NCBI GenBank assembly: GCA_000802045.1 | Contig: JUEF01000030.1 | Span: 11,767 to 75,766, forward strand | Direction: 5' to 3' | DNA: 64,000 nt | Source of the DNA: Peptococcaceae bacterium BICA1-8 | GTDB taxonomy: Bacteria > Bacillota > Peptococcia > Peptococcales > BICA1-8 | In this document: in pieces, positions 2,169-38,919 of the stretch | Layout of the letters: the number at the start of each line of letters is the position of its first letter | How positions within the stretch are numbered: the stretch's first letter is position 1 | Position numbers and translations under genes: made by a program | The notes under the pieces: generated by a model | Databases searched by the model: none | What the model saw: the letters and a program-made list of their open reading frames with translations, nothing else | What the model was told of the DNA's origin: nothing

Positions 2169-2384
2169 CTATTCCATCCCTAAAGAGTCTATTACAGTTT
2201 GCTTAACCTCTTCTACGGTCATCTCGAGTTTTTCCGCTATATCTTTTGGTTCGGCCCAATTATTAAAACTCAATAATATTGGTAGCATATCACCGGGAAT
2301 AATAGTTTTTAAAATATCAAGAAAATCCGGCGGGCATTTTATCTTTATTGCTAAACTTTCATATAAATCTAACATAAAAAACAA
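2169..2384 (-). CDS. small protein, probably the detached N-terminal part of the downstream Fe-S gene
   Basis: 71-aa ORF whose 3' end overlaps, in another frame, the upstream extension of ORF 1384..2109. Confidence 0.4.
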   Translation of the reverse strand: MFFMLDLYESLAIKIKCPPDFLDILKTIIPGDMLPILLSFNNWAEPKDIAEKLEMTVEEVKQTVIDSLGME

Positions 2385-2509
2385 TCCCTCCTTTTACTTA
2401 TATTAAAGAGAATTATAGGTCAGTATTTGGGCGTTATGTGATGTCCACACTCTTTTGGTTGTAAAACCCAAGAATTGTTCTAGTCATTCTTGGGTAAAAT
2501 TAGCCTGAG

Positions 2510-2767
2510 GTGAATAATATGTTAATGAACCAGCTAATGAATATGATGGAAAATTTAGTTCAGGAACTAAAAGAAGCTGACCCGGATAAGAGAGATCATT
2601 TCTTAAAAACTACGGTTACCCTTTTTGATATTGCTACTGAAGCTATGGAAAGAAGTCAAGAATTCCGGCAAGGGTTTGCAAAAGTTCATTCAGAATTTCT
2701 TAAATATCCGGAATGTAGAGAAACAGTTGACCTGAGCATAAAAGCTTACGAAAAGTTTGTTGAATAG
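2510..2767 (+). CDS. hypothetical protein
   Basis: 85-aa ORF, helical and acidic composition, no recognisable motif. Confidence 0.3.
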   Translation: MNNMLMNQLMNMMENLVQELKEADPDKRDHFLKTTVTLFDIATEAMERSQEFRQGFAKVHSEFLKYPECRETVDLSIKAYEKFVE

Positions 2768-2819
2768 AAATCAGGTTTGCCTTACCATTAGAAATAATAT
2801 ATGCGCTCCCAAGTTGTTT

Positions 2820-3464
2820 TCATCTTGAAGCTATACACTTCTCTTGGGTAGGGTAAAATGGAAGGAACCCGCCATACATATTTCTAAAAGTTCCACCACC
2901 TGTTCCACCATCTGCGCTAATCATAAAATAGTTCGTAATTCCTGCTAATTTTACTTTAAAGCTCTCAAATTTACTCCATTTTAATACTTCTTCAGAGAAT
3001 TTGTTAATCCCATTAACACCCAATAATTTCGCAGGAGGGTTTAACATAGTATCACAAGTTTCTTTAACAGCCTCAATTATTATTTGGGCAGTTACAGGTT
3101 GAGAACTGTTGAAATCAAACTCAAGCCATTTATTATTCGCAGGAAAAGGTCTGTAATTACTACTTCTAGCCTTTTCCATTTGTTGATAATCAACTAAATG
3201 AAAATCCTCAGATATTAAACCTTTTGGGGTTCTTATTGGATAATCAGAGTTATCCCTATCAGATACATGGAATTTTCGTTTTTCATCCTCAAATCCAAAT
3301 AAAACAATTGCATGACCACCAAAATGATTATCTTCACCTAAATTTAGATATTGAAGATACGGCATATCTACATAGACTAAAACAGGCTGTCCTTTTCTTA
3401 TAAGCAGCTTATTTTTTTCGAAAGCTTTATCATATCGCTTTGTGCTTTTACATTGTATTTTCAC
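2820..3464 (-). CDS. BtrH-like / DUF4872 family protein, probably N-terminally truncated
   Basis: GGHAIVLFGFED and following segments resemble the end of a BtrH_N peptidase-like domain plus DUF4872. About 100 aa of the expected N-terminus are absent. Confidence 0.45.
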   Translation of the reverse strand: MKIQCKSTKRYDKAFEKNKLLIRKGQPVLVYVDMPYLQYLNLGEDNHFGGHAIVLFGFEDEKRKFHVSDRDNSDYPIRTPKGLISEDFHLVDYQQMEKARSSNYRPFPANNKWLEFDFNSSQPVTAQIIIEAVKETCDTMLNPPAKLLGVNGINKFSEEVLKWSKFESFKVKLAGITNYFMISADGGTGGGTFRNMYGGFLPFYPTQEKCIASR

Positions 3465-3559
3465 ATTTAATCTTTTAGATATTTTCCTCTCATCTATTCA
3501 CACAGCACAAAATAAAACAATTCGGCTTACATTATGTTAGTTTTACTTAGTAGTTTTTG

Positions 3560-4018
3560 TTAGTCATTCAATCTAGTACTGTGATATTTTTCGCTTGAAC
3601 CTTCTAAAATGGAAGTTATTTTCTCTACGGTAATCCAATCATCCATATTACTCTGACGATTAAGTTTGAGAGTTTCAATAGTTTCAACATCTTTTATTTC
3701 TATTAGGCAAAGAATTTTTTTACCTGCCCAACGTTTTATTTGAGTATCAGTTAGGTTTAGTTTATTTTGATTTTCAGCAACTACCGCTTTTGATTCATCT
3801 TCTGTCATTTTTTCAGAATTAAATACGCTTTTAACAGTGGCTTTCGCATTAATTAATCCATTACCATTATTTTCAATAAAGTAAAGTGTTTCTCCTTCAA
3901 ATACTCTGCCATGAGGTAACTTTCTACCAGCTGCACCTCTAATAATCATTGTTTTTGTTCCATTTAAAATTTTTTCTAAAACCTTTGCTTTTGCATCGCA
4001 ATAAACTAAATGTTCCAT
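3560..4018 (-). CDS. ASCH/PUA-like domain protein
   Basis: 152-aa ORF. The N-terminal beta-rich segment (TMIIRGAAGRKLPHGRV..GETLYF) is typical of ASCH-fold proteins. This is a tentative call. Confidence 0.4.
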   Translation of the reverse strand: MEHLVYCDAKAKVLEKILNGTKTMIIRGAAGRKLPHGRVFEGETLYFIENNGNGLINAKATVKSVFNSEKMTEDESKAVVAENQNKLNLTDTQIKRWAGKKILCLIEIKDVETIETLKLNRQSNMDDWITVEKITSILEGSSEKYHSTRLND

Positions 4019-4440
4019 CTAAAGTACCCTCCCCATTTTTATTAGTTTATTAACACTATCATGACTCAACCTTTATCAAAACGAGAAATTCTATTTACCA
4101 TTGGAAATAACATTTTCTTCTATTCTTCATCTATTCATCTCTTAAACAAAGACAGGCAAAAATTGAACTCCCATATGTATGTGCCTTCTGCAGACGGTTC
4201 AGTACAACACAAGATTCATGAAGTTCTATATTCTTTTGTGCCATTTCAAAGGTCTCTCAGCTATTATGCTCCGAGGTCTTTTTTACTTTATTCATGGAAC
4301 ATCATAAATCTCTAATTTGTTATCTGACGGTTCGCCCTCATAGACTACCAAAAAGTTATTATTTGGGTGAAATCAGGAGCTTAGGTTTTGCTTGCAAATC
4401 TTAACCCCTAGCGAGCTGGCGTAGTCCATCAAAGGTGGAT

Positions 4441-5358
4441 TTAACGCTCTATTCCGAACAAATCACTTACCGATTTGTGCTTACGATGTAACAGCCAGGC
4501 TACGATCATGCCAAAAATAAATGTGGAAGAAGCTGTCTCTATCATGTGACTAAAGCGTACGCTTGCAATCGGTATAAGCGGATTTTCCAAAATGTGACCA
4601 ATGTTCTGCGGGATACTAAAGAGCAGACCTACAAGGATAGCCGTCCACCAGGCATTGATCTTTGAGCAACGAATAACCGGAAGAGCGCACAATGTCCAAA
4701 GCATGGCACGAAGAATCTGGAAGGAAAATAACCCAGGATCTGTACGCAAGGTATTGGATGTATGCGTCCAAAAAGGCAGAATTTCTCCCGGGCTTCCATA
4801 AAAAGCTCGTAACTCTGGGTTTTGCCAGGCAATGAAATATCCAGCACTCCAATACAGGACAAGATAGGCCATAACGATAACGACCAACTTCAATGCCCAC
4901 TGTTTCACGGGCATGACAAGTGCTGGATTAGACACTGAATCAGCCTTTCCACGACCTTTACCCAAAACCAACACCCCCAGTGGGACAAAGAAGAACGCGA
5001 TCGGAAAACCCATCACAAACAAACGTGGTAAAAGTTGTGCTCCAACCGTAATATTAGAAAGGAAATACCATGTCTCGATTTGCATAATGAATGTTACTGC
5101 ACCGTAATAGGCAAAAGATAATCCCAAGGCTAGTTTCCAGCCGCTCCAACGTGAGCTCAGAACCAGCCCCATCACCAACAGCGTATTGACAATACTAATA
5201 ATTAACATGCCAGTTTCCGCCGATACAAGCCCTGGCTCTGATTTGATATTCGGTATCAGCCCCAAAACAGCCTGCGCTCCACCGATGAAGAAGACGTTGA
5301 ACAACACGACAAGTACAATAAAACGTAAAATCCAACCTAGAACAGAAAAAGCCTTCAT
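4441..5358 (-). CDS. polytopic integral membrane protein, unknown family
   Basis: 305-aa ORF with about 8 hydrophobic segments. It is visibly more GC-rich than its neighbours. The nested ORFs on either strand are artefacts. Confidence 0.6.
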   Translation of the reverse strand: MKAFSVLGWILRFIVLVVLFNVFFIGGAQAVLGLIPNIKSEPGLVSAETGMLIISIVNTLLVMGLVLSSRWSGWKLALGLSFAYYGAVTFIMQIETWYFLSNITVGAQLLPRLFVMGFPIAFFFVPLGVLVLGKGRGKADSVSNPALVMPVKQWALKLVVIVMAYLVLYWSAGYFIAWQNPELRAFYGSPGEILPFWTHTSNTLRTDPGLFSFQILRAMLWTLCALPVIRCSKINAWWTAILVGLLFSIPQNIGHILENPLIPIASVRFSHMIETASSTFIFGMIVAWLLHRKHKSVSDLFGIER

Positions 5359-5547
5359 AATTTACTCTCCTAACTCAATTATTTAGAGCATGTAAAACCT
5401 TGACTAAGTTTTATGCAGCAGTATCTAGCATTTCATTCTTTTATAACCGAGTATTTCACCTAATGACCCTGAGCTTTGCGACGTCGGGGCTTAATAATAA
5501 CCTTCTGATGGTTGATATATTCACATGGAAATTACCTCATAATATCC

Positions 5548-6156
5548 TCATACCTTTTTGAGAATCATTCTAACACTGAAATATATCAATAAAAAACCAA
5601 CAGTAACATTCAAGATTTGTATTACATTATCCGCGAAAAACGTCTTAGCAAAGCTTCCGATTAAAGCAATTAACGTTAAAAAGAACATCGTCGATAATAA
5701 TGCTCCAAATCCAAATAAGTAAATGTCTTTTCTTTTCATGTCTTCTTCTGCGATTTTGGCTGAAAATACACCTGCCCAGAAAATTATTGTAAGGGGATTT
5801 GAAGCAGTGAGGATGATTGCAGTAGAAAATAAATTATTTGAATAATAAATATTCTGTATACTTAAGCTCGGCAAGAAACTAATATTAAATTGACTTAGAA
5901 CTGTGCTAAATCCAAAAATAAACAAGATGGCAGAGCCAAATATTTTTAAACTAAATTTTATATTTTTTTTCTCAATTATCGAAGCTATACCAAGAATAGC
6001 AGTAAGAATAAAAAAACCATCAATTAAAACAACACCTAATACCCCTGTTTCTGCAAAATAAAATCCTCTTAATGACGCCATTTGGAAAATAAAAATACAA
6101 ACAGGGCCTATTGCAAATTGTAATACCATTCCAAAATTGAAACCTTTAAAAATCAT
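5548..6156 (-). CDS. LysE family amino-acid exporter
   Basis: 202-aa, 6-TM protein with LysE-type organisation. It overlaps the upstream Lrp/AsnC gene by 4 nt. Confidence 0.75.
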   Translation of the reverse strand: MIFKGFNFGMVLQFAIGPVCIFIFQMASLRGFYFAETGVLGVVLIDGFFILTAILGIASIIEKKNIKFSLKIFGSAILFIFGFSTVLSQFNISFLPSLSIQNIYYSNNLFSTAIILTASNPLTIIFWAGVFSAKIAEEDMKRKDIYLFGFGALLSTMFFLTLIALIGSFAKTFFADNVIQILNVTVGFLLIYFSVRMILKKV

Positions 6157-9044: not shown

Positions 9045-9890
9045 GCCTCATCTTTCCGAGTCATGGTAGACGCATCGGTTACCCGACGCACCGGGCTCCT
9101 CGAGAATACTCCCTTCCGTAATCGGCTATCATTAATAGCCTCTTGGTATTTTTCGCAGTGAGGTTGGCACCATTTATCCAGCCCTGCATGTCCGGTAGGT
9201 GTTTCCTTTGCAAATTGCGTATTCCCGTTAATCCCTTCCCCATGTAGCCGGCTCTCTCGACCTCATAGTAATATGGATTAATCCGACTTCCTATAGGTCT
9301 TCGGTCAGCCTCTTTGTCGATTGCACATTCCTACCAATAATATTTATATAACTGGAACCTATAGGATCTCCCAAGTTCCGGATACTTCTCTCCATACATG
9401 CCACGTTCTAGGACCCCGACAGACCCTCCAAAATCTCACCAATAGCGATTTTTTTGTATTACTTCCGTGACATTAAACACGTCGTCATCTGCATTTTCCT
9501 CTGTTTCCAGAGTCCACGGTTAACGGGGCTCAATTGTGCTTCAGGGATTACGGTCTCCCTTATGGCCTATATGGTTCTCTAGGTAAAGAATCTAAGCGAT
9601 TCACACAAAAACTAAAAAAAGGTTTTTGGTTCTCTGCTTATGTGTACATTCACCTAGCAGTTACCAGTTTCGGCGCAACACTCGATATGGGTGGCTGGTT
9701 AGGCCTTGCCCAACAGGGACTTTCACCCTGCAAGAAGTACCAAACTTCGCTTGGCGTACTAACGTTCCCGGCATTCCCGACGCTCACCAACCTTAACGCC
9801 TTACCCAATAGGGTGAGTGTGGTCCGGCATGCTACTTGATTAAACTATACCGGACCCGTAAGTGGGAATGGACGTGTTAGCCGGGGTAGC
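9045..9890 (-). ncRNA. GC-rich ORF-free structured segment, family unassigned (degenerate group-II-intron-like or other large ncRNA, or decayed DNA)
   Basis: About 0.85 kb with no credible ORF in six frames and many local hairpins. On the minus strand, GAGCCCGGU-GCGUCGG-GUAA-CCGAUGC (9058-9098) resembles a domain-5-like GNRA hairpin with an AGC base. GGGUGAAAGUCCC lies near 9717-9729. Confidence 0.3.
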
Positions 9891-9895
9891 ATCTT

Positions 9896-10684
9896 TTAAA
9901 AAGGTATATCCTCTTTTCGTATCAAAAGTGAATCTACAAGATAAGTAATATAGGCAGCAACTAAATTTAAAATCAGTTCCGCCTCAGTTTCTGTAACTTT
10001 GGATCCTTCAGGAGATGAATGTGCAACGCCCTGACTTTCACCCCGAAAAGCATATATTTTAATAATACTTTCAGTAATAGTGGGGGGAATATTGATTAAA
10101 TCCGATTTTTGGAGTTCCCGAATTGCCTTGGTAAAATTTACTGACGCCTTCTTACCCGTAATGATTTCTATACAAGACTCTAATGCACACATAGATTCCT
10201 TTACACAATTAGTTAAATCCGGAATAGGCTTTTCCCCGAAAAACTTAAGTGCCTTATTATAATGTTGCCTCACTAAATATAATTCGCTGTTGGAGAGGAT
10301 TGCCCCCATTCTCTTAATACTCTTCTGTGTATGTAGTCTTCCTTCTCTCTCAAACTGTCCATTGTTAAATCTATAATCTAAATTTTCTTCACATAACAAA
10401 TTATTAATTTCATGTGTAAAATACTCTTTTACTTCTTCAATAGATACTAATATCTGCATTAATTGGTTATCACGGACATCAGTTAAAAGTATTGCATATA
10501 TTCGTTCACAAAGTGAATATATCTTGTACCATTCTACACTTTGAAGCAACCAATTAAACTCATCTAGGTAAGTTTGAAAATTGTTATAGCCTTTTTCTAC
10601 CCGTCCAAGTCGATATAACTCATTAAGAACAGTTCCCCATGCCGAGGAGTTATTGTTTTCTGCAATATAACGCCGATGTACCAT
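9896..10684 (-). CDS. AbiJ-N-terminal-domain / HEPN-like (Abi_C-like) protein, possibly 5'-truncated
   Basis: 262 aa. The C-terminal FRGESQGVAHSS resembles the R-x(n)-H HEPN/Abi_C motif. The frame is open upstream (LFEKPISDDFPNTVRIGLSFIIED) but has no start codon there. Confidence 0.45.
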   Translation of the reverse strand: MVHRRYIAENNNSSAWGTVLNELYRLGRVEKGYNNFQTYLDEFNWLLQSVEWYKIYSLCERIYAILLTDVRDNQLMQILVSIEEVKEYFTHEINNLLCEENLDYRFNNGQFEREGRLHTQKSIKRMGAILSNSELYLVRQHYNKALKFFGEKPIPDLTNCVKESMCALESCIEIITGKKASVNFTKAIRELQKSDLINIPPTITESIIKIYAFRGESQGVAHSSPEGSKVTETEAELILNLVAAYITYLVDSLLIRKEDIPF

Positions 10685-33522: not shown

Positions 33523-34365
33523 CTATTTCACTTTCTCATTACTTTCCTTGCCATAAGGTATTGGTATGTATTGTACCGATGGTCTCCGATTATTAGTCTG
33601 GGGATACAAGTCCATTAACTTGTATACTTCATAGGGCATATCTGTACTTACAAAAAGCTCTAATTCCCGCAACTCTTCAAATCTTATTGGATAATCATGG
33701 GTCCAGCGACCTTCGCTAAAAATTTTAGCAAGCTCACAAGCCCTTTCCTGGGAGAAATGCTCGGCCAGAATAAAGCACAAGGTATTCTCCACTTGTTTAA
33801 TCGCTTTTTTTGCTATATCAGCGAAAATTAGAGTTTCATCATCTATTTCATTGATATCCTTTTCCTTAACAACATTTAGTATAGAGACTGCAGGATATTG
33901 GCCTAGTTGTGGATCTACAGGACCTAAAACTGCGTTTTCATCCATTACTATTTTGTCGGCTGCCAAGGCAATCATTGTTCCGCCAGACATTGCATAATGA
34001 GGAACAAAAACTGTCACATCTGCTTTGTGTTTTTTTAAAGCATAGGCTATCTGTTCGGAAGCCAAAACTAATCCACCAGGGGTATGTAAAATAATATCTA
34101 TTGGCATATCAGCTGGAGTGAATCGAATTGCCCGCAGTATCTGCTCCGAATCCTCGATGTTTATATATTTTCGTAAGGCTAAGCCAAAAAAGCTCATTGA
34201 TTCCTGTCGGTGAATAAGGGTAATAACCCTCGAATTCCTCTTTTTCTCAAAATCCTGCATAATCTTAATTCTACTGGTTTCTATGCCTCTTTGCTTTATT
34301 AAAGGTAACAGCATAGATACCAAAAATAAAAGCAAAAAAAACTGCCAAAATCCATCGCCTTTCAC
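33523..34365 (-). CDS. SDH-family ClpP-fold serine protease
   Basis: N-terminal TM, then TPGGLVLASEQIA and YAMSGGTMIALAAD typical of the serine dehydrogenase proteinase family. The start codon is uncertain. Confidence 0.7.
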   Translation of the reverse strand: MKGDGFWQFFLLLFLVSMLLPLIKQRGIETSRIKIMQDFEKKRNSRVITLIHRQESMSFFGLALRKYINIEDSEQILRAIRFTPADMPIDIILHTPGGLVLASEQIAYALKKHKADVTVFVPHYAMSGGTMIALAADKIVMDENAVLGPVDPQLGQYPAVSILNVVKEKDINEIDDETLIFADIAKKAIKQVENTLCFILAEHFSQERACELAKIFSEGRWTHDYPIRFEELRELELFVSTDMPYEVYKLMDLYPQTNNRRPSVQYIPIPYGKESNEKVK

Positions 34366-34446: not shown

Positions 34447-36075
34447 TTATTGCTCATCATCCTTTTTTAAAATCATCTCACAAAATTGTTCTAAGATTAT
34501 AGGGTCATAATGGGTTACAGTATATTTAGCTAATTCCTCAACTGCTTGTTCCTTGGACATTGCTTCTTTATAAGGCCGATTTGTTGTAATAGCATCATAG
34601 CTATCAACAATCCTTAGTATTCTTGCACCTATAGGAATATCCTTACCTTTTAAACCTTTCGGATAACCTGTCCCATCATAATTTTCATGATGGTATAAAA
34701 TTATCTCCAAAGAATTCTGAAGAGTTTTTATAGGTCTGATAATATCTGCTCCCCATTGAGGATGTTGTTTAAACATTTCCCACTCAGACTGATTAAGTTT
34801 TTTTGGTTTATTCAAAACCTCTCTAGAAATTTCTATTTTACCGATATCATGTAAGAGTGAACCATAAATAAGATTTTTTGTTAGGAAATCATTGAATTTT
34901 GAACTTATAGAAAATTTTCTGCATAGTTCCATAGTTCTTTCCGAATGTCCATAAGTATAGCGGTCTTTAGCATTAATAACCATAGTTAGAGTTCTGATTG
35001 AATTTAAAAGTTCTTGTTCCTCATCCTTTAAAACAAGGCTCAATTCGTCAAAAACTGAATAATAGACTTCTACTTTATTCTTACTGACAAATTTAGCTTT
35101 ATATAAAGCTTCATCAGCTTTTTGAATAAGCTTTTCCTTAGTATCAGCCATTAAAGGCAACTGAGCTATTCCAATTGAAACAGTTAAGTTGCCCTTTGGC
35201 AGCACCTGCATGCCTATAAATTCAGTTTTTTCTATCTCTTCTCGAATCTTCTCAGCTAATATCCTAGCATCCCGGATCCCTGCCTCAGGCAATATTATTA
35301 CAAACTCTTCCCCACCATACCTAGCACAGTAGCCTTTTCCTTGAGTATTATTCTTCATGATATCAGCAACGGCTTTTAATACAATGTCACCCTTCTGATG
35401 ACCTAGGGAATCATTATACACCTTAAAATAATCTATATCTAATAAAAGCAAAGAAAGTGAAGACTTATTTCCTTTGGCTTCAGTTATTTTCTCATCTAGT
35501 ATGGTCTGAAAGCTCCTATGGTTTAATAAATCAGTCAATCCATCATGGGTTGCAAGTCTTTCTAATTCCTCTCTTATCTTTGCCTCTGTTTCCGTCATGT
35601 TGCCTAAAAGCCAGGCTAACAAAAATAAGACTCCACTAAGCATGATATCTGCATCAATATAGATAAAATTACTTAAAAAACCCATACCTAATAAAATAAG
35701 TGTTATTAAACCGACAAATATATACGAGTATATTTTTTTATATTTTAATGATGTGATAACTATTGGCATTAAATAAAGTATTTTAAAAATTTCTTGTTCT
35801 TCTTTCAATAAAAGAAAGGAAGCAATTAAAATAAAGAATATATTTATAAATGTGTCAAGCAATATGGTATGTTTATAGTCTACAAGTCGTATTAGTGGTA
35901 TCAGTGAAATAATAACTATAAAAACATAGCTAGAACCTACCGAGTAAAGAGTTGATGCTTCATTTTTAAAATCAAAAACTCTCATTACTAATATGGCTAA
36001 AAGTAAAAAAAAGAAAGTTTGTGTGACAAGAATATAAATCTCTTTATTTTTAAAATTTTTATCTATTTCTAACAT
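34447..36075 (-). CDS. polytopic membrane GGDEF plus HD-GYP protein (c-di-GMP synthesis/hydrolysis)
   Basis: About 6 N-terminal TM segments. GGDEF domain with RYGGEEF. HD-GYP domain with HSERT...LLHDIGK...HHENYDGTGYP. Start taken at MLEIDKNF. Confidence 0.85.
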   Translation of the reverse strand: MLEIDKNFKNKEIYILVTQTFFFLLLAILVMRVFDFKNEASTLYSVGSSYVFIVIISLIPLIRLVDYKHTILLDTFINIFFILIASFLLLKEEQEIFKILYLMPIVITSLKYKKIYSYIFVGLITLILLGMGFLSNFIYIDADIMLSGVLFLLAWLLGNMTETEAKIREELERLATHDGLTDLLNHRSFQTILDEKITEAKGNKSSLSLLLLDIDYFKVYNDSLGHQKGDIVLKAVADIMKNNTQGKGYCARYGGEEFVIILPEAGIRDARILAEKIREEIEKTEFIGMQVLPKGNLTVSIGIAQLPLMADTKEKLIQKADEALYKAKFVSKNKVEVYYSVFDELSLVLKDEEQELLNSIRTLTMVINAKDRYTYGHSERTMELCRKFSISSKFNDFLTKNLIYGSLLHDIGKIEISREVLNKPKKLNQSEWEMFKQHPQWGADIIRPIKTLQNSLEIILYHHENYDGTGYPKGLKGKDIPIGARILRIVDSYDAITTNRPYKEAMSKEQAVEELAKYTVTHYDPIILEQFCEMILKKDDEQ

Positions 36076-36095
36076 AGTTATAAACCTCACTGAAT

Positions 36096-36124
36096 TTAAA
36101 TTGAGGTGGAAAACCACCTCAATT
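36096..36124 (-). other. strong stem-loop between agrD and the GGDEF/HD-GYP gene
   Basis: AAATTGAGGTGGttttCCACCTCAATTT, a 12-bp perfect stem with no U-run after it. Confidence 0.6.
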
Positions 36125-36128
36125 TAAA

Positions 36129-36251
36129 CTATTTTTGTAAAGACTTAGGAGCTTTAGGTTGATATGTCCACCAACCACAGGCAAAAACTGAGCTGACACT
36201 GGCCAAAAGCATTAAAGTTGTAGCAAGTGCTGTAAAAATCGCCTTTTTCAT
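36129..36251 (-). CDS. agrD: AgrD-type autoinducing-peptide precursor (40 aa, absent from the ORF track)
   Basis: MKKAIFTALATTLMLLASVSSVFACGWWTYQPKAPKSLQK. RBS GGGAGGTG. The CGWWT-YQP..PKSL tail parallels clostridial AgrD (e.g. CLWFT-HQPEEPKSL). Lies 5 nt after agrB. Confidence 0.75.
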   Translation of the reverse strand: MKKAIFTALATTLMLLASVSSVFACGWWTYQPKAPKSLQK

Positions 36252-36256
36252 TTAAA

Positions 36257-36829
36257 TCACCTCCCTTTATTAAAAATTGGTAGTAAAGTTAGTGACTGAT
36301 ATAAAATGCCTAACATTGCACTAATATTTATCAGCAAATTGTCATTTAAAATTGTAAATATTAAAATAAAAATAATAAACAGAACAGAGGAAAGTCTCAG
36401 CTTATTCCGTAAGGTTTGGGAATGAATAGGTTTGGCTTCGGAGTCAACGGGTGCAAATAAAAATACAATAATCAAACATAGCAAAATGAAAATCATATTA
36501 ATCCAGTTAGTAGATCCAACCTGCAATAAATAATTAGCTAGGACTCCAATTAAACTGTAGATAATTGCACCCAAACCTAGGCATTTTAAGGGTGTATCAA
36601 AGTGAGCGCCTCCGGAAACTCTACGTAAAACACCGCCTGATATAGCTGCTATGGCTGCAGGCAAAAGAGCGTTAAAGACAAAACCTAATAATAAAATAGC
36701 CAGAAAACCAACTACACCAAGCAAGAACATCTCAATGGCATAAGAAACAATTTCATTTTTTTCTTCATCATAGTTTAAATCCTTAGTAATAAAACCCGCT
36801 AAGGATTTACTAAAATTAGAAAGCATCAC
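36257..36829 (-). CDS. agrB: AgrB family AIP-processing membrane peptidase
   Basis: 190 aa, 4-6 TM, conserved RR.SGG.H segment (LRRVSGGAHF). Confidence 0.85.
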   Translation of the reverse strand: MMLSNFSKSLAGFITKDLNYDEEKNEIVSYAIEMFLLGVVGFLAILLLGFVFNALLPAAIAAISGGVLRRVSGGAHFDTPLKCLGLGAIIYSLIGVLANYLLQVGSTNWINMIFILLCLIIVFLFAPVDSEAKPIHSQTLRNKLRLSSVLFIIFILIFTILNDNLLINISAMLGILYQSLTLLPIFNKGR

Positions 36830-37283
36830 TAGACTCCTTTATATCTAATCTCTTTTTTTTAATAAATAAGGCTACAAAAAAGATAATTAATACATGGGGT
36901 AAAGTAATTAAAATTCTTATAAAATCATTAGTTAATAATTCCTCACGAGAAATCGCAAATAGATTCATAATGGTAGGAACTATTAAGGACTCTGAAACAA
37001 TTAAAACTAAAAAACTCAATAAGCTAGATAAAATTGCACTACTTAAATCTACTTTTTTAATGAAACTTAGATAAGCAAATAAAAGACCAATTAATACTAC
37101 GGTATGCACGCCAAAAGTAATAGGTAGTAACCTAACCATAAAGGCAGTTATTGCTAGAATAATTCCTACAAAAATTACCTCTCGCCATTTAAAAGGTTGT
37201 CTTGCAATTGAAAGAGCTAAAATAACAACCGCAATTTGTTCAGGAATTCCTTGTAATAATACTACAGAAAAAGAAATATTCAT
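36816..37283 (-). CDS. 5-TM membrane protein of unknown function, overlapping agrB by 14 nt
   Basis: 155 aa, RBS GGAGGA, no soluble domain. Confidence 0.5.
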   Translation of the reverse strand: MNISFSVVLLQGIPEQIAVVILALSIARQPFKWREVIFVGIILAITAFMVRLLPITFGVHTVVLIGLLFAYLSFIKKVDLSSAILSSLLSFLVLIVSESLIVPTIMNLFAISREELLTNDFIRILITLPHVLIIFFVALFIKKKRLDIKESSDAF

Positions 37284-37483
37284 TCTGCATCCTCCATTTC
37301 AACTAATTTCCACAAATAATAATTTTCCCCTTTTTAAAAAAACAAATATTTCTATATTTTTTTCTCATATATTTAGAAAATCTACCTTTCTGCTGTTATA
37401 ATTTTTCACAATATTATTTATTCGCCAAACATTTACAAATTCCTACTAATTTTATCCACTTTGTATAAAATTTTTATGCATAG

Positions 37484-38396: not shown

Positions 38397-38448
38397 CTTA
38401 TTCCCTCCTTCACTTAAGATTAGTTACTCTACCTAGGATGTACTTCAT

Positions 38449-38823
38449 GTCATTCTGAGCGTAGCGAAGAATCTTAATCCATAAGATTCTCTGATAAATC
38501 CTTCCACCCTGGGTTTGCGTTTTCTATCAAATCATTTTTTTTAGACCTAATCCAGCCTTTAATCTGTTTCTCTCTGGAAATTGCACTTCTTACATCTGTC
38601 GTACTTTCAAAATAAACTAATTTATCAACATTATATTTCTTTGTAAACCCTTTAACCATCTTGTTTTTATGTTCATATAAGCGACGTTCGAGATCATTAG
38701 TAACACCTGTATATAGAACATTGTTTGACCAGTTTGTCAGTATATAAACATAATACATAAAGTTCACCTACTGATAAGATTCTTCACTTCGTTCCCGTCA
38801 TTCTGAGCGTAGCGAAGAATCTT
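38449..38823 (-). mobile_element. GIY-YIG mini-cassette bounded by perfect 27-bp direct repeats
   Basis: GTCATTCTGAGCGTAGCGAAGAATCTT at 38449-38475 and 38797-38823. It encloses only the GIY-YIG ORF. Confidence 0.65.
38474..38758 (-). CDS. GIY-YIG nuclease superfamily protein (UPF0213/YhbQ-like)
   Basis: MYYVYILTNWSNNVLYTGVTNDLERRLYEHK... carries the GIY-YIG core motifs. RBS AGGTGA 5 nt upstream of this ATG. Confidence 0.85.
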   Translation of the reverse strand: MYYVYILTNWSNNVLYTGVTNDLERRLYEHKNKMVKGFTKKYNVDKLVYFESTTDVRSAISREKQIKGWIRSKKNDLIENANPGWKDLSENLMD

Positions 38824-38919
38824 GCCTAGTAAGAAGACTAAGATCCTTCGGTCGTACCTCCCTCAGGATGACACAGCAACAATCTGTAGCTTTCAAAGCT
38901 ATGACAAATACAATTTTAG

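Follow-up and report, generated by a model that had tools for sequence, protein, structure and literature searches.

In a 64,000-nucleotide stretch of Peptococcaceae bacterium BICA1-8 (contig JUEF01000030.1, positions 11,767 to 75,766; hereafter the window), the minus strand carries a cassette of four genes, which encode a 155-aa membrane protein ('up'), AgrB, a 40-aa AgrD and a protein composed of a six-helix transmembrane (6TM) sensor, a GGDEF domain and an HD-GYP domain. The small open reading frame (ORF) in this cassette is, with near certainty, a genuine new member of the AgrD family and of the Clostridium perfringens type. The peptide predicted to arise from it is likely sensed directly by the downstream 6TM-GGDEF-HD-GYP protein, an enzyme of cyclic di-GMP (c-di-GMP) turnover, and on the comparative evidence given below we favor this interpretation with some reserve. 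The wider proposition, namely that Agr peptide sensing has a second, kinase-free branch in which a co-evolving 6TM-GGDEF-HD-GYP protein reads the cyclic peptide directly, stands in our estimate at about even chances. Taken alone, the peptide gene is an ordinary new AgrD family member.

The agrD ORF runs from an ATG at position 36251 to a stop codon at 36129 and encodes MKKAIFTALATTLMLLASVSSVFACGWWTYQPKAPKSLQK, exactly as stated in a preliminary description of this DNA that was made from the sequence alone. Its ribosome binding site (RBS), GGGAGGTG, shares bases with the TGA stop codon of agrB (36259-36257), and only 5 nt separate this stop codon, ending at 36257, from the agrD start on the same strand. 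Since chance alone produces many small ORFs (64 with 30 aa or more were counted in 11 kb), a frame of 40 codons is by itself no proof of a gene. The peptide was, however, matched by the NCBIfam model TIGR04223 (quorum_AgrD, AgrD family cyclic lactone autoinducer peptide) with 41.0 bits (E = 1.5e-10) at a curated cut-off of 19 bits, and the match spans the full length of the model (positions 1-38 of 38). Pfam, in which this AgrD branch is not modeled, gave no match to the peptide. Two metagenome contigs with matching neighbors each carry a called gene for an identical peptide. In the GenBank record of the metagenome-assembled genome (MAG) the gene probably lacks annotation, because the locus tags JM58_03320 (the putative receptor) and JM58_03330 (the upstream protein) leave a single number between them, presumably that of agrB, and thus none for agrD.

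To place the gene among its relatives, loci were gathered via the downstream gene and then searched with small hidden Markov models (HMMs) derived from a set of four cassettes. The gene order up, agrB, agrD, 6TM-GGDEF-HD-GYP is intact in 25 of 25 distinct loci with enough sequence, including that of C. perfringens (the window, L003, L004, L006, L009-L014, L016-L020, L022, L024-L027, L030, L031 and L034-L036), and in each of them an agrD was matched at the same site after agrB. Conservation of the ORF beside agrB in related genomes, which the preliminary description had named as a point on which its proposal could fail, thus held in all loci examined.

The precursor can be divided into a leader (residues 1-24, ending in VFA), a predicted ring, CGWWT (residues 25-29), and an AgrB-recognition tail, YQPKAPKSLQK (residues 30-40). 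The proposal that the Cys is placed for a five-residue ring agrees with its position, C25 to T29, five residues ahead of the conserved YQP. The leader, previously called amphipathic, instead resembles a signal peptide, with MKK followed by a hydrophobic core and a -3/-1 cleavage site (VFA) directly before the Cys. Of the tail, described as acidic and proline-containing, the proline part is present as P-x-x-P, while the acidic part is not borne out: the tail contains three Lys and no acidic residue and is therefore basic. Across the relatives, every locus conforms to the consensus ...SS[VA]FA, C-x-x-x-x, [YH]QP-x-x-P[KR]SL[QIL]K, in which leader and tail are near-invariant and variation is confined to the four residues after the Cys. 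These residues read GWWT, GWWR, TWWN, AWWG, AFWG, ALWG, LLWG, AWFG, VFAH, SAWY, HAWY, TFWK, GGWA, GYLA, IYWA, FYWA, SFFA, AYLM, AVLM or LWIN. Judged from these alignments, four hypervariable residues between conserved flanks are what one classically expects of an autoinducer ring. Since rings with two adjacent Trp recur in relatives (GWWT four times, and GWWR, TWWN and AWWG), CGWWT is typical for the subfamily, and its earlier description as unusually hydrophobic was overstated. Some genomes carry more than one copy: L013 has two agrD genes (3947-4069 and 5802-5942; rings CGGWA and CAWFG) with one agrB, and L020 and L025 are two complete cassettes of one MAG, with the rings CFYWA and CIYWA.

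The HMM of this subfamily also matches the AgrD of C. perfringens (...SA, CLWFT, HQPEEPKSLRDE). The database sequence, MKKLNKNLLTLFAALTTVVATTVATSACLWFTHQPEEPKSLRDE, which is named 'cyclic lactone autoinducer peptide [Clostridium perfringens]', and the published autoinducing peptide (AIP), [CLWFT] (PMC12312760), agree with the ring and tail quoted for C. perfringens AgrD in the preliminary description. C. perfringens AgrD is an experimentally verified AIP precursor (PMC7300355; PMC12312760; PMC12828898). We also considered a chance ORF, or a secreted peptide with a lipoprotein-like leader and no role in signaling, for which one could cite the signal-peptide-like leader followed by a Cys and the name 'Putative lipoprotein' given to C. 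perfringens AgrD in one UniRef record. Both candidates were rejected as highly improbable in view of the TIGR04223 score well above the cut-off, the obligate linkage to AgrB, the hypervariable ring within invariant flanks and the membership of the verified C. perfringens precursor in the same subfamily. The AgrD precursor identity is thereby confirmed. The adjacent AgrB is matched over its full length by the corresponding Pfam model, and its motif GGAHFDTPLKC (GGAH-x6-C) places a His and a Cys seven residues apart, which we take to be equivalent to the catalytic pair H77/C84 of Staphylococcus aureus.

The gene that follows agrD (34447-36075, minus strand) encodes 542 aa and likely starts at an ATG at 36075 with GAGG upstream. 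Its GGDEF domain has an intact GGEEF motif (RYGGEEF) and no RxxD I-site, and its HD-GYP domain has the intact motifs LLHDIGK and HHENYDGTGYP (HHExxDGxGYP). The HD-GYP motifs are kept in approximately 105 of 106 full-length homologues, and GG[DE]EF likewise in almost all. From its sequence, the protein is one that carries both a predicted c-di-GMP-making and a predicted c-di-GMP-breaking domain with intact active-site motifs. In L027 the receptor (3727-5361) has a degenerate GGDEF motif (GGAKF) and an intact HD-GYP domain; the output of some members may therefore be a phosphodiesterase only. The locus departs from the canonical agrBDCA arrangement with adjacent AgrC and AgrA; the gene with GGDEF and HD_5 domains stands after agrD, and no HisKA, HATPase, Response_reg or LytTR domain was found in the 38 ORFs of the window scanned against Pfam. 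An Rfam scan of the whole window revealed no c-di-GMP riboswitch or other RNA near the cassette.

The evidence that connects the downstream protein to the peptide comes from the comparison of closely related cassettes. The window is syntenic with L010, which belongs to Clostridiaceae bacterium BRH_c20a, and a sliding-window comparison of the two gave 51-66% nucleotide identity inside a sharply delimited block and 87-96% on both sides of it. Coming from the upstream oxidoreductase gene, identity drops from 93-96% to 51-66% at approximately 37,400, and it returns to 87-95% at approximately 35,620, which is the end of transmembrane helix 6 of the sensor. The block is thus made up of precisely 'up', agrB, agrD and the sensor, while the cytoplasmic part of the receptor lies outside it. 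Between the encoded proteins, divergence amounts to 8% in the cytoplasmic domains, 58% in the sensor and 55% in AgrB, and the predicted rings are CGWWT in the window and CAFWG in L010. A third allele, L035 (CAWWG), shows the same contrast with both; its identity to the window is 54-71% in the block and 86-93% outside. L034 and L036 come from more distant organisms (oxidoreductase 83%, cytoplasmic part 77-79%), yet have the ring CGWWT as the window does, and their blocks are closer to that of the window (up 67%, agrB 72%, agrD 82-85%, sensor 70-72%) than are those of the closer relatives L010 and L035 (54-61%, agrD 70-71%). By these comparisons, the block tracks AIP ring identity and not organism relatedness. 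In S. aureus, the variable segment that defines the agr specificity groups likewise spans AgrB, AgrD and the AgrC sensor.

The same relation was recovered in partial Mantel tests covering 20 cassettes. The distance between rings correlated with the distance between sensors when the cytoplasmic-domain distance was controlled (r = 0.27, p = 0.0016), whereas no correlation with the cytoplasmic distance was left when the sensor was controlled (r = -0.02, p = 0.54). For AgrB and the sensor, the partial correlation was r = 0.50 (p = 0.0002). Since its sensor co-varies with the peptide, the downstream protein is the probable receptor.

Several points weigh against direct sensing by this protein. In C. 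perfringens, VirS binds the peptide (PMC7492741; PMC12828898), and the window covers 64 kb, so that a VirS/AgrC-like kinase may be encoded elsewhere in the genome. The sharp block boundaries were seen with approximately three alleles of one clade only, and C. perfringens and a close relative (CLWFT vs CMWFA) display uniform divergence without a hypervariable block, which is why this pair is no independent replicate. The window (GWWT) and L012 (GWWR) are one ring residue apart, although their sensors differ by 68%. The co-variation of the sensor could also reflect contact with AgrB or 'up' and not with the peptide, or it could result from hitch-hiking of DNA beside agrD during allele replacement. 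In addition, the sensor shows no detectable resemblance to a solved structure, as neither a search of its sequence against the PDB nor a Foldseek search of the PDB with its AlphaFold2 (AF2) model gave a match, and hence homology offers no basis for proposing a binding pocket. Finally, the receptor gene is broken in four loci in which agrBD is intact (a DDE transposase inside the gene in L006, 4170-7455; a split gene in L019, 4680-7542; frameshifts in L025, 6001-6641, and L026, 5992-7516), and the sensors of some kinases encoded beside the cassette form a group of their own, as described below.

On these grounds one may suppose that the AIP is real but sensed by an unlinked kinase of the AgrC/VirS type, the GGDEF-HD-GYP protein being a neighbor with another input, an output or a regulator. 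As the example of C. perfringens shows, possession of this cassette is compatible with a kinase receptor encoded far away, and kinases with the 6TM module do exist in some loci. We consider this explanation unlikely, since it leaves unexplained why the block ends precisely at the junction between sensor and cytoplasmic part, why the sensor follows the ring even where this conflicts with the relatedness of the organisms, and why the linkage has survived across lineages with different flanks; moreover, neither kinases nor response regulators are among the scanned ORFs of the window. The hosts of the cassette comprise Peptococcaceae, Desulfitobacteriia, Gracilibacter, Ca. Formimonas, Thermanaerosceptrum and other Clostridia, and the flanks include ribosomal genes (L004), RNase HII (L003) and an amine oxidase (C. 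perfringens, L030).

The 6TM module is not confined to this type of protein. A profile search yielded 184 cluster representatives among 1.84 billion proteins, which identifies a rare family, and of 75 representatives scanned, 41 were HisKA/HATPase_c kinases, often with PAS, while GGDEF was found in 30 and HD_5 in 21. The Pfam model 6TM_PilS (PF25323) was touched by 12 of the 75, and some had weak matches to DUF4118 or MASE1; the protein of the window matches no membrane-domain model. The genome scan with the sensor used an alignment of 10 sequences, and no second copy of the 6TM domain was found in the window. The kinases sharing the module are HisKA/HATPase_c proteins with PAS and not of the HPK10 type; an AgrC-sensor model is absent from Pfam. 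In four loci, PAS-HisKA-HATPase kinases (H-box AHEIRNPIT) with the 6TM module are encoded beside the agr cassette itself. The kinase of L027 follows directly downstream, with a second copy of 'up' in between, and its sensor and that of the GGDEF receptor are 54% identical and each other's best match. The sensors of the divergent upstream kinases in L003, L014 and L019 are 34-41% identical to the co-located GGDEF receptor and form a separate paralogue group. A sensor allele shared between co-located kinases and the GGDEF receptor was thus rejected as a general rule, as it holds only in L027. Because the module is fused to kinase as well as to GGDEF/HD-GYP outputs beside agrBD, 6TM is a portable input module, and the 6TM kinases may carry the same signal along a second branch, a phosphorelay.

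A further explanation, which we regard as quite improbable, attributes the co-variation of the 6TM domain to its assembly with AgrB and/or 'up' into a membrane complex, for instance one that couples c-di-GMP status to peptide production, and not to binding of the mature peptide. It is consistent with a partial correlation that is higher between AgrB and the sensor than between ring and sensor, and with the presence of 'up' in the same variable block. On the other hand, histidine kinases also carry the module at their N-terminus as input, where a ligand sensor is normally found. As for 'up' itself, its AF2 model has five helices (predicted local distance difference test score, pLDDT, 93) and gave no fold match in a Foldseek search of the PDB; no Pfam family was matched, and hhalign detected no relation to the 6TM sensor. 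Its 75 homologues are all named 'hypothetical' and share the invariant residues P14, E15, R51, G58, H60, E98 and P129. The gene is always found ahead of agrB, singly or in two or three tandem copies. Since it lies inside the variable block, 'up' must see something allele-specific, be it the ring, AgrB or the sensor, and on the sequence data its role could be in maturation, export or co-reception.

In the explanation that we favor, the pathway would proceed as follows. The agrD product would be converted into a cyclic pentapeptide autoinducer, with AgrB, by homology, cutting after Thr29 and joining Thr29 to the thiol of Cys25 to give a thiolactone. Type I signal peptidase would probably cleave between VFA and the Cys, and because this site directly precedes the Cys, a five-residue ring without a tail is predicted. 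An N-terminal Cys in the mature peptide is a feature shared with clostridial cyclic AIPs such as Rc-AIP1 of Ruminiclostridium cellulolyticum, and clostridial AIPs without an N-terminal extension have been shown to rearrange from the thiolactone to a head-to-tail lactam (PMC8251862). For CGWWT, whose Cys is predicted to be N-terminal, an S-to-N acyl shift could in the same way produce a homodetic cyclopeptide. Work on Listeria monocytogenes suggests that activity may reside in the labile 5-mer thiolactone (reviewed in PMC12828898). Binding of the peptide in the membrane domain would then, as the comparative data suggest, alter how much c-di-GMP is made relative to how much is degraded, so that cell density would be converted directly to a second-messenger level. 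'Up' would belong to the same specificity unit and could act in maturation, export or co-reception. The hairpin that directly follows agrD would probably let agrD mRNA exceed receptor mRNA. An equivalent hairpin was found in 18 of the 18 loci folded, including C. perfringens, with differing stem sequences and often a T-run after it, and is probably a partial or leaky terminator or an RNA-stabilizing stem that sets the ratio of agrD to receptor transcript.

The closest counterpart is the Agr-like locus of C. perfringens, which encodes a DUF5317 protein, a 153-aa protein, AgrB, AgrD and a 563-aa protein with GGDEF and HD_5 domains. The HMMs built from Peptococcaceae matched the last four of these genes with E values of 2e-31 ('up'), 4e-36 (AgrB), 5e-14 (AgrD) and 1e-17 (sensor, a full-length match). 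By position, the genes correspond to CPE1563, CPE1562, agrB, agrD and CPE1560 (PMC2706048), the label CPE1560 being based on position only; the 153-aa ORF, the counterpart of CPE1562, corresponds to 'up'. The two loci share the order of a protein of about 150 aa, AgrB, AgrD, a terminator-like hairpin and a 6TM-GGDEF-HD-GYP protein, as well as an AgrD in which the Cys directly follows a signal-peptide-like ...A and a five-residue aromatic ring is followed by [YH]QPxxPKSL. The C. perfringens locus differs in its acidic AgrD tail (HQPEEPKSLRDE), which is basic here, in its ring (CLWFT vs CGWWT), in the extra upstream DUF5317 gene and in its accepted receptor, the unlinked VirS/VirR. The DUF5317 membrane protein precedes 'up' in C. 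perfringens and relatives (L030, 5290-5856) and is absent from the Peptococcaceae cassettes. Complementation of a C. perfringens agrB mutant required a fragment that included CPE1563 and CPE1562, which the authors credited to operon structure (PMC2706048).

The agrBD genes of C. perfringens have been described without a linked receptor, and reception has been assigned to VirS; in the same studies, 'one or more additional receptors' were left possible, and an unexplained pulldown band of approximately 75 kDa was noted (PMC7300355; PMC7492741). A 2025 review mentions neither c-di-GMP nor a diguanylate cyclase (PMC12828898). Our literature search, whose coverage was incomplete so that an earlier description is possible, found no report that links agrBD to a GGDEF/HD-GYP receptor or discusses the downstream gene of C. 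perfringens. Polytopic input domains joined to c-di-GMP turnover domains are otherwise present in GGDEF/HD-GYP enzymes with 6TM (PilS-like), MASE1 or DUF4118 domains, whose input models the window protein does not match. We know of no 6TM_PilS, MASE1 or DUF4118 input domain that has been tied to an AgrD-type peptide.

Compared with agrBDCA of S. aureus, the cassette has in common a cyclic peptide with a five-residue ring processed by AgrB (here by homology), a variable segment that takes in AgrB, the peptide and the receptor's N-terminal membrane sensor and leaves the cytoplasmic part conserved, and alleles that are discordant with organism relatedness. The differences concern the output, which is GGDEF and HD-GYP here but an HPK10 kinase and a LytTR regulator there, the sensor, which is a PilS-like or unclassified 6TM domain and not an AgrC sensor, and the extra, co-varying 'up'. 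Furthermore, no exocyclic tail is predicted here, and the AgrD tail is basic, whereas it is acidic in S. aureus. An RNAIII-like element was not found either, no search aimed at one having been made.

If the downstream protein is the receptor, population density would set the c-di-GMP level without a two-component system, and agr would feed into c-di-GMP turnover, either in place of a histidine kinase or in addition to one. The sensor, AgrB, the peptide and 'up' would then evolve together as interchangeable specificity alleles, and the family of membrane proteins to which CPE1562 belongs would have to be counted as a new and obligatory part of this agr type. CPE1560, identified by position, would be a candidate for the 'additional receptor' of C. 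perfringens, and since this genetically tractable pathogen has the same arrangement, the idea is directly testable there. It bears on further peptide receptors in C. perfringens and on the effect of Agr on sporulation and biofilm. In environmental Peptococcaceae, strain-specific 'pherotypes' would be expected to govern behavior that depends on c-di-GMP.

Table 1. Elements of the agr cassette in the window and 6TM kinases encoded beside related cassettes.
Feature	Sequence	Coordinates	Strand	Basis
'Specificity block', hypervariable (promoter region, up, agrB, agrD, receptor 6TM sensor)	Window	35620..37400	-	Identity scans
up, 155-aa five-helix membrane protein, first cassette gene	Window	36816..37283	-	Overlaps agrB start
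agrB, membrane endopeptidase/cyclase	Window	36257..36829	-	PF04647, E 7.2e-39, full-length match
RBS of agrD	Window	36258..36265	-	Direct reading; 6 nt before ATG
agrD, 40-aa precursor	Window	36129..36251	-	Sequence, TIGR04223, family alignment
Hairpin, 15-bp GC core, immediately 3' of agrD stop	Window	36095..36128	-	RNA fold, -24 kcal/mol
Six-helix transmembrane sensor domain, residues 1-172	Window	35560..36075	-	Hydropathy, entropy, AF2 (6 helices, pLDDT 85)
GGDEF diguanylate-cyclase domain	Window	35077..35553	-	PF00990, E 2e-42; TIGR00254
HD-GYP (HD_5) c-di-GMP phosphodiesterase domain	Window	34501..34992	-	PF13487, E 4e-41
6TM kinase, directly downstream after second up copy	L027	6001-8082		
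6TM kinase, divergent, upstream	L003 (Formimonas)	2304-3902	-	
6TM kinase, divergent, upstream	L014	1110-2810	-	
6TM kinase, divergent, upstream	L019	125-1765	-	

Downstream of the cassette, two distant genomes carry a CheW gene and a stand-alone HD-GYP gene (L004, 7896-9368; L006, 10233-11804), and Formimonas has an HD-GYP gene alone (L003, 8330-9634). These genes may be further parts of a c-di-GMP circuit; none comparable is present in the window. Here, the receptor gene is directly followed by a gene for an SDH-type ClpP-like serine protease (33523-34365, minus strand), which is missing at this place in the syntenic loci L010, L034, L035 and L036, indicating a recent insertion or deletion. 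On the other side of the cassette, a small GIY-YIG nuclease ORF (38474-38767, minus strand) lies in a stretch (approximately 38,429-38,916) that does not align to L010; with approximately 490 bp in the window and approximately 240 bp in L010, the ORF looks like an insertion. Farther away, Rfam identified a group II intron domain D1-D4 (RF02005, 83 bits) at 9404-9723 on the minus strand, and the ORF beside it (9896-10684, minus strand) has a sub-threshold match to the AbiJ N-terminal domain (PF18863, 31.9 bits vs a cut-off of 34).

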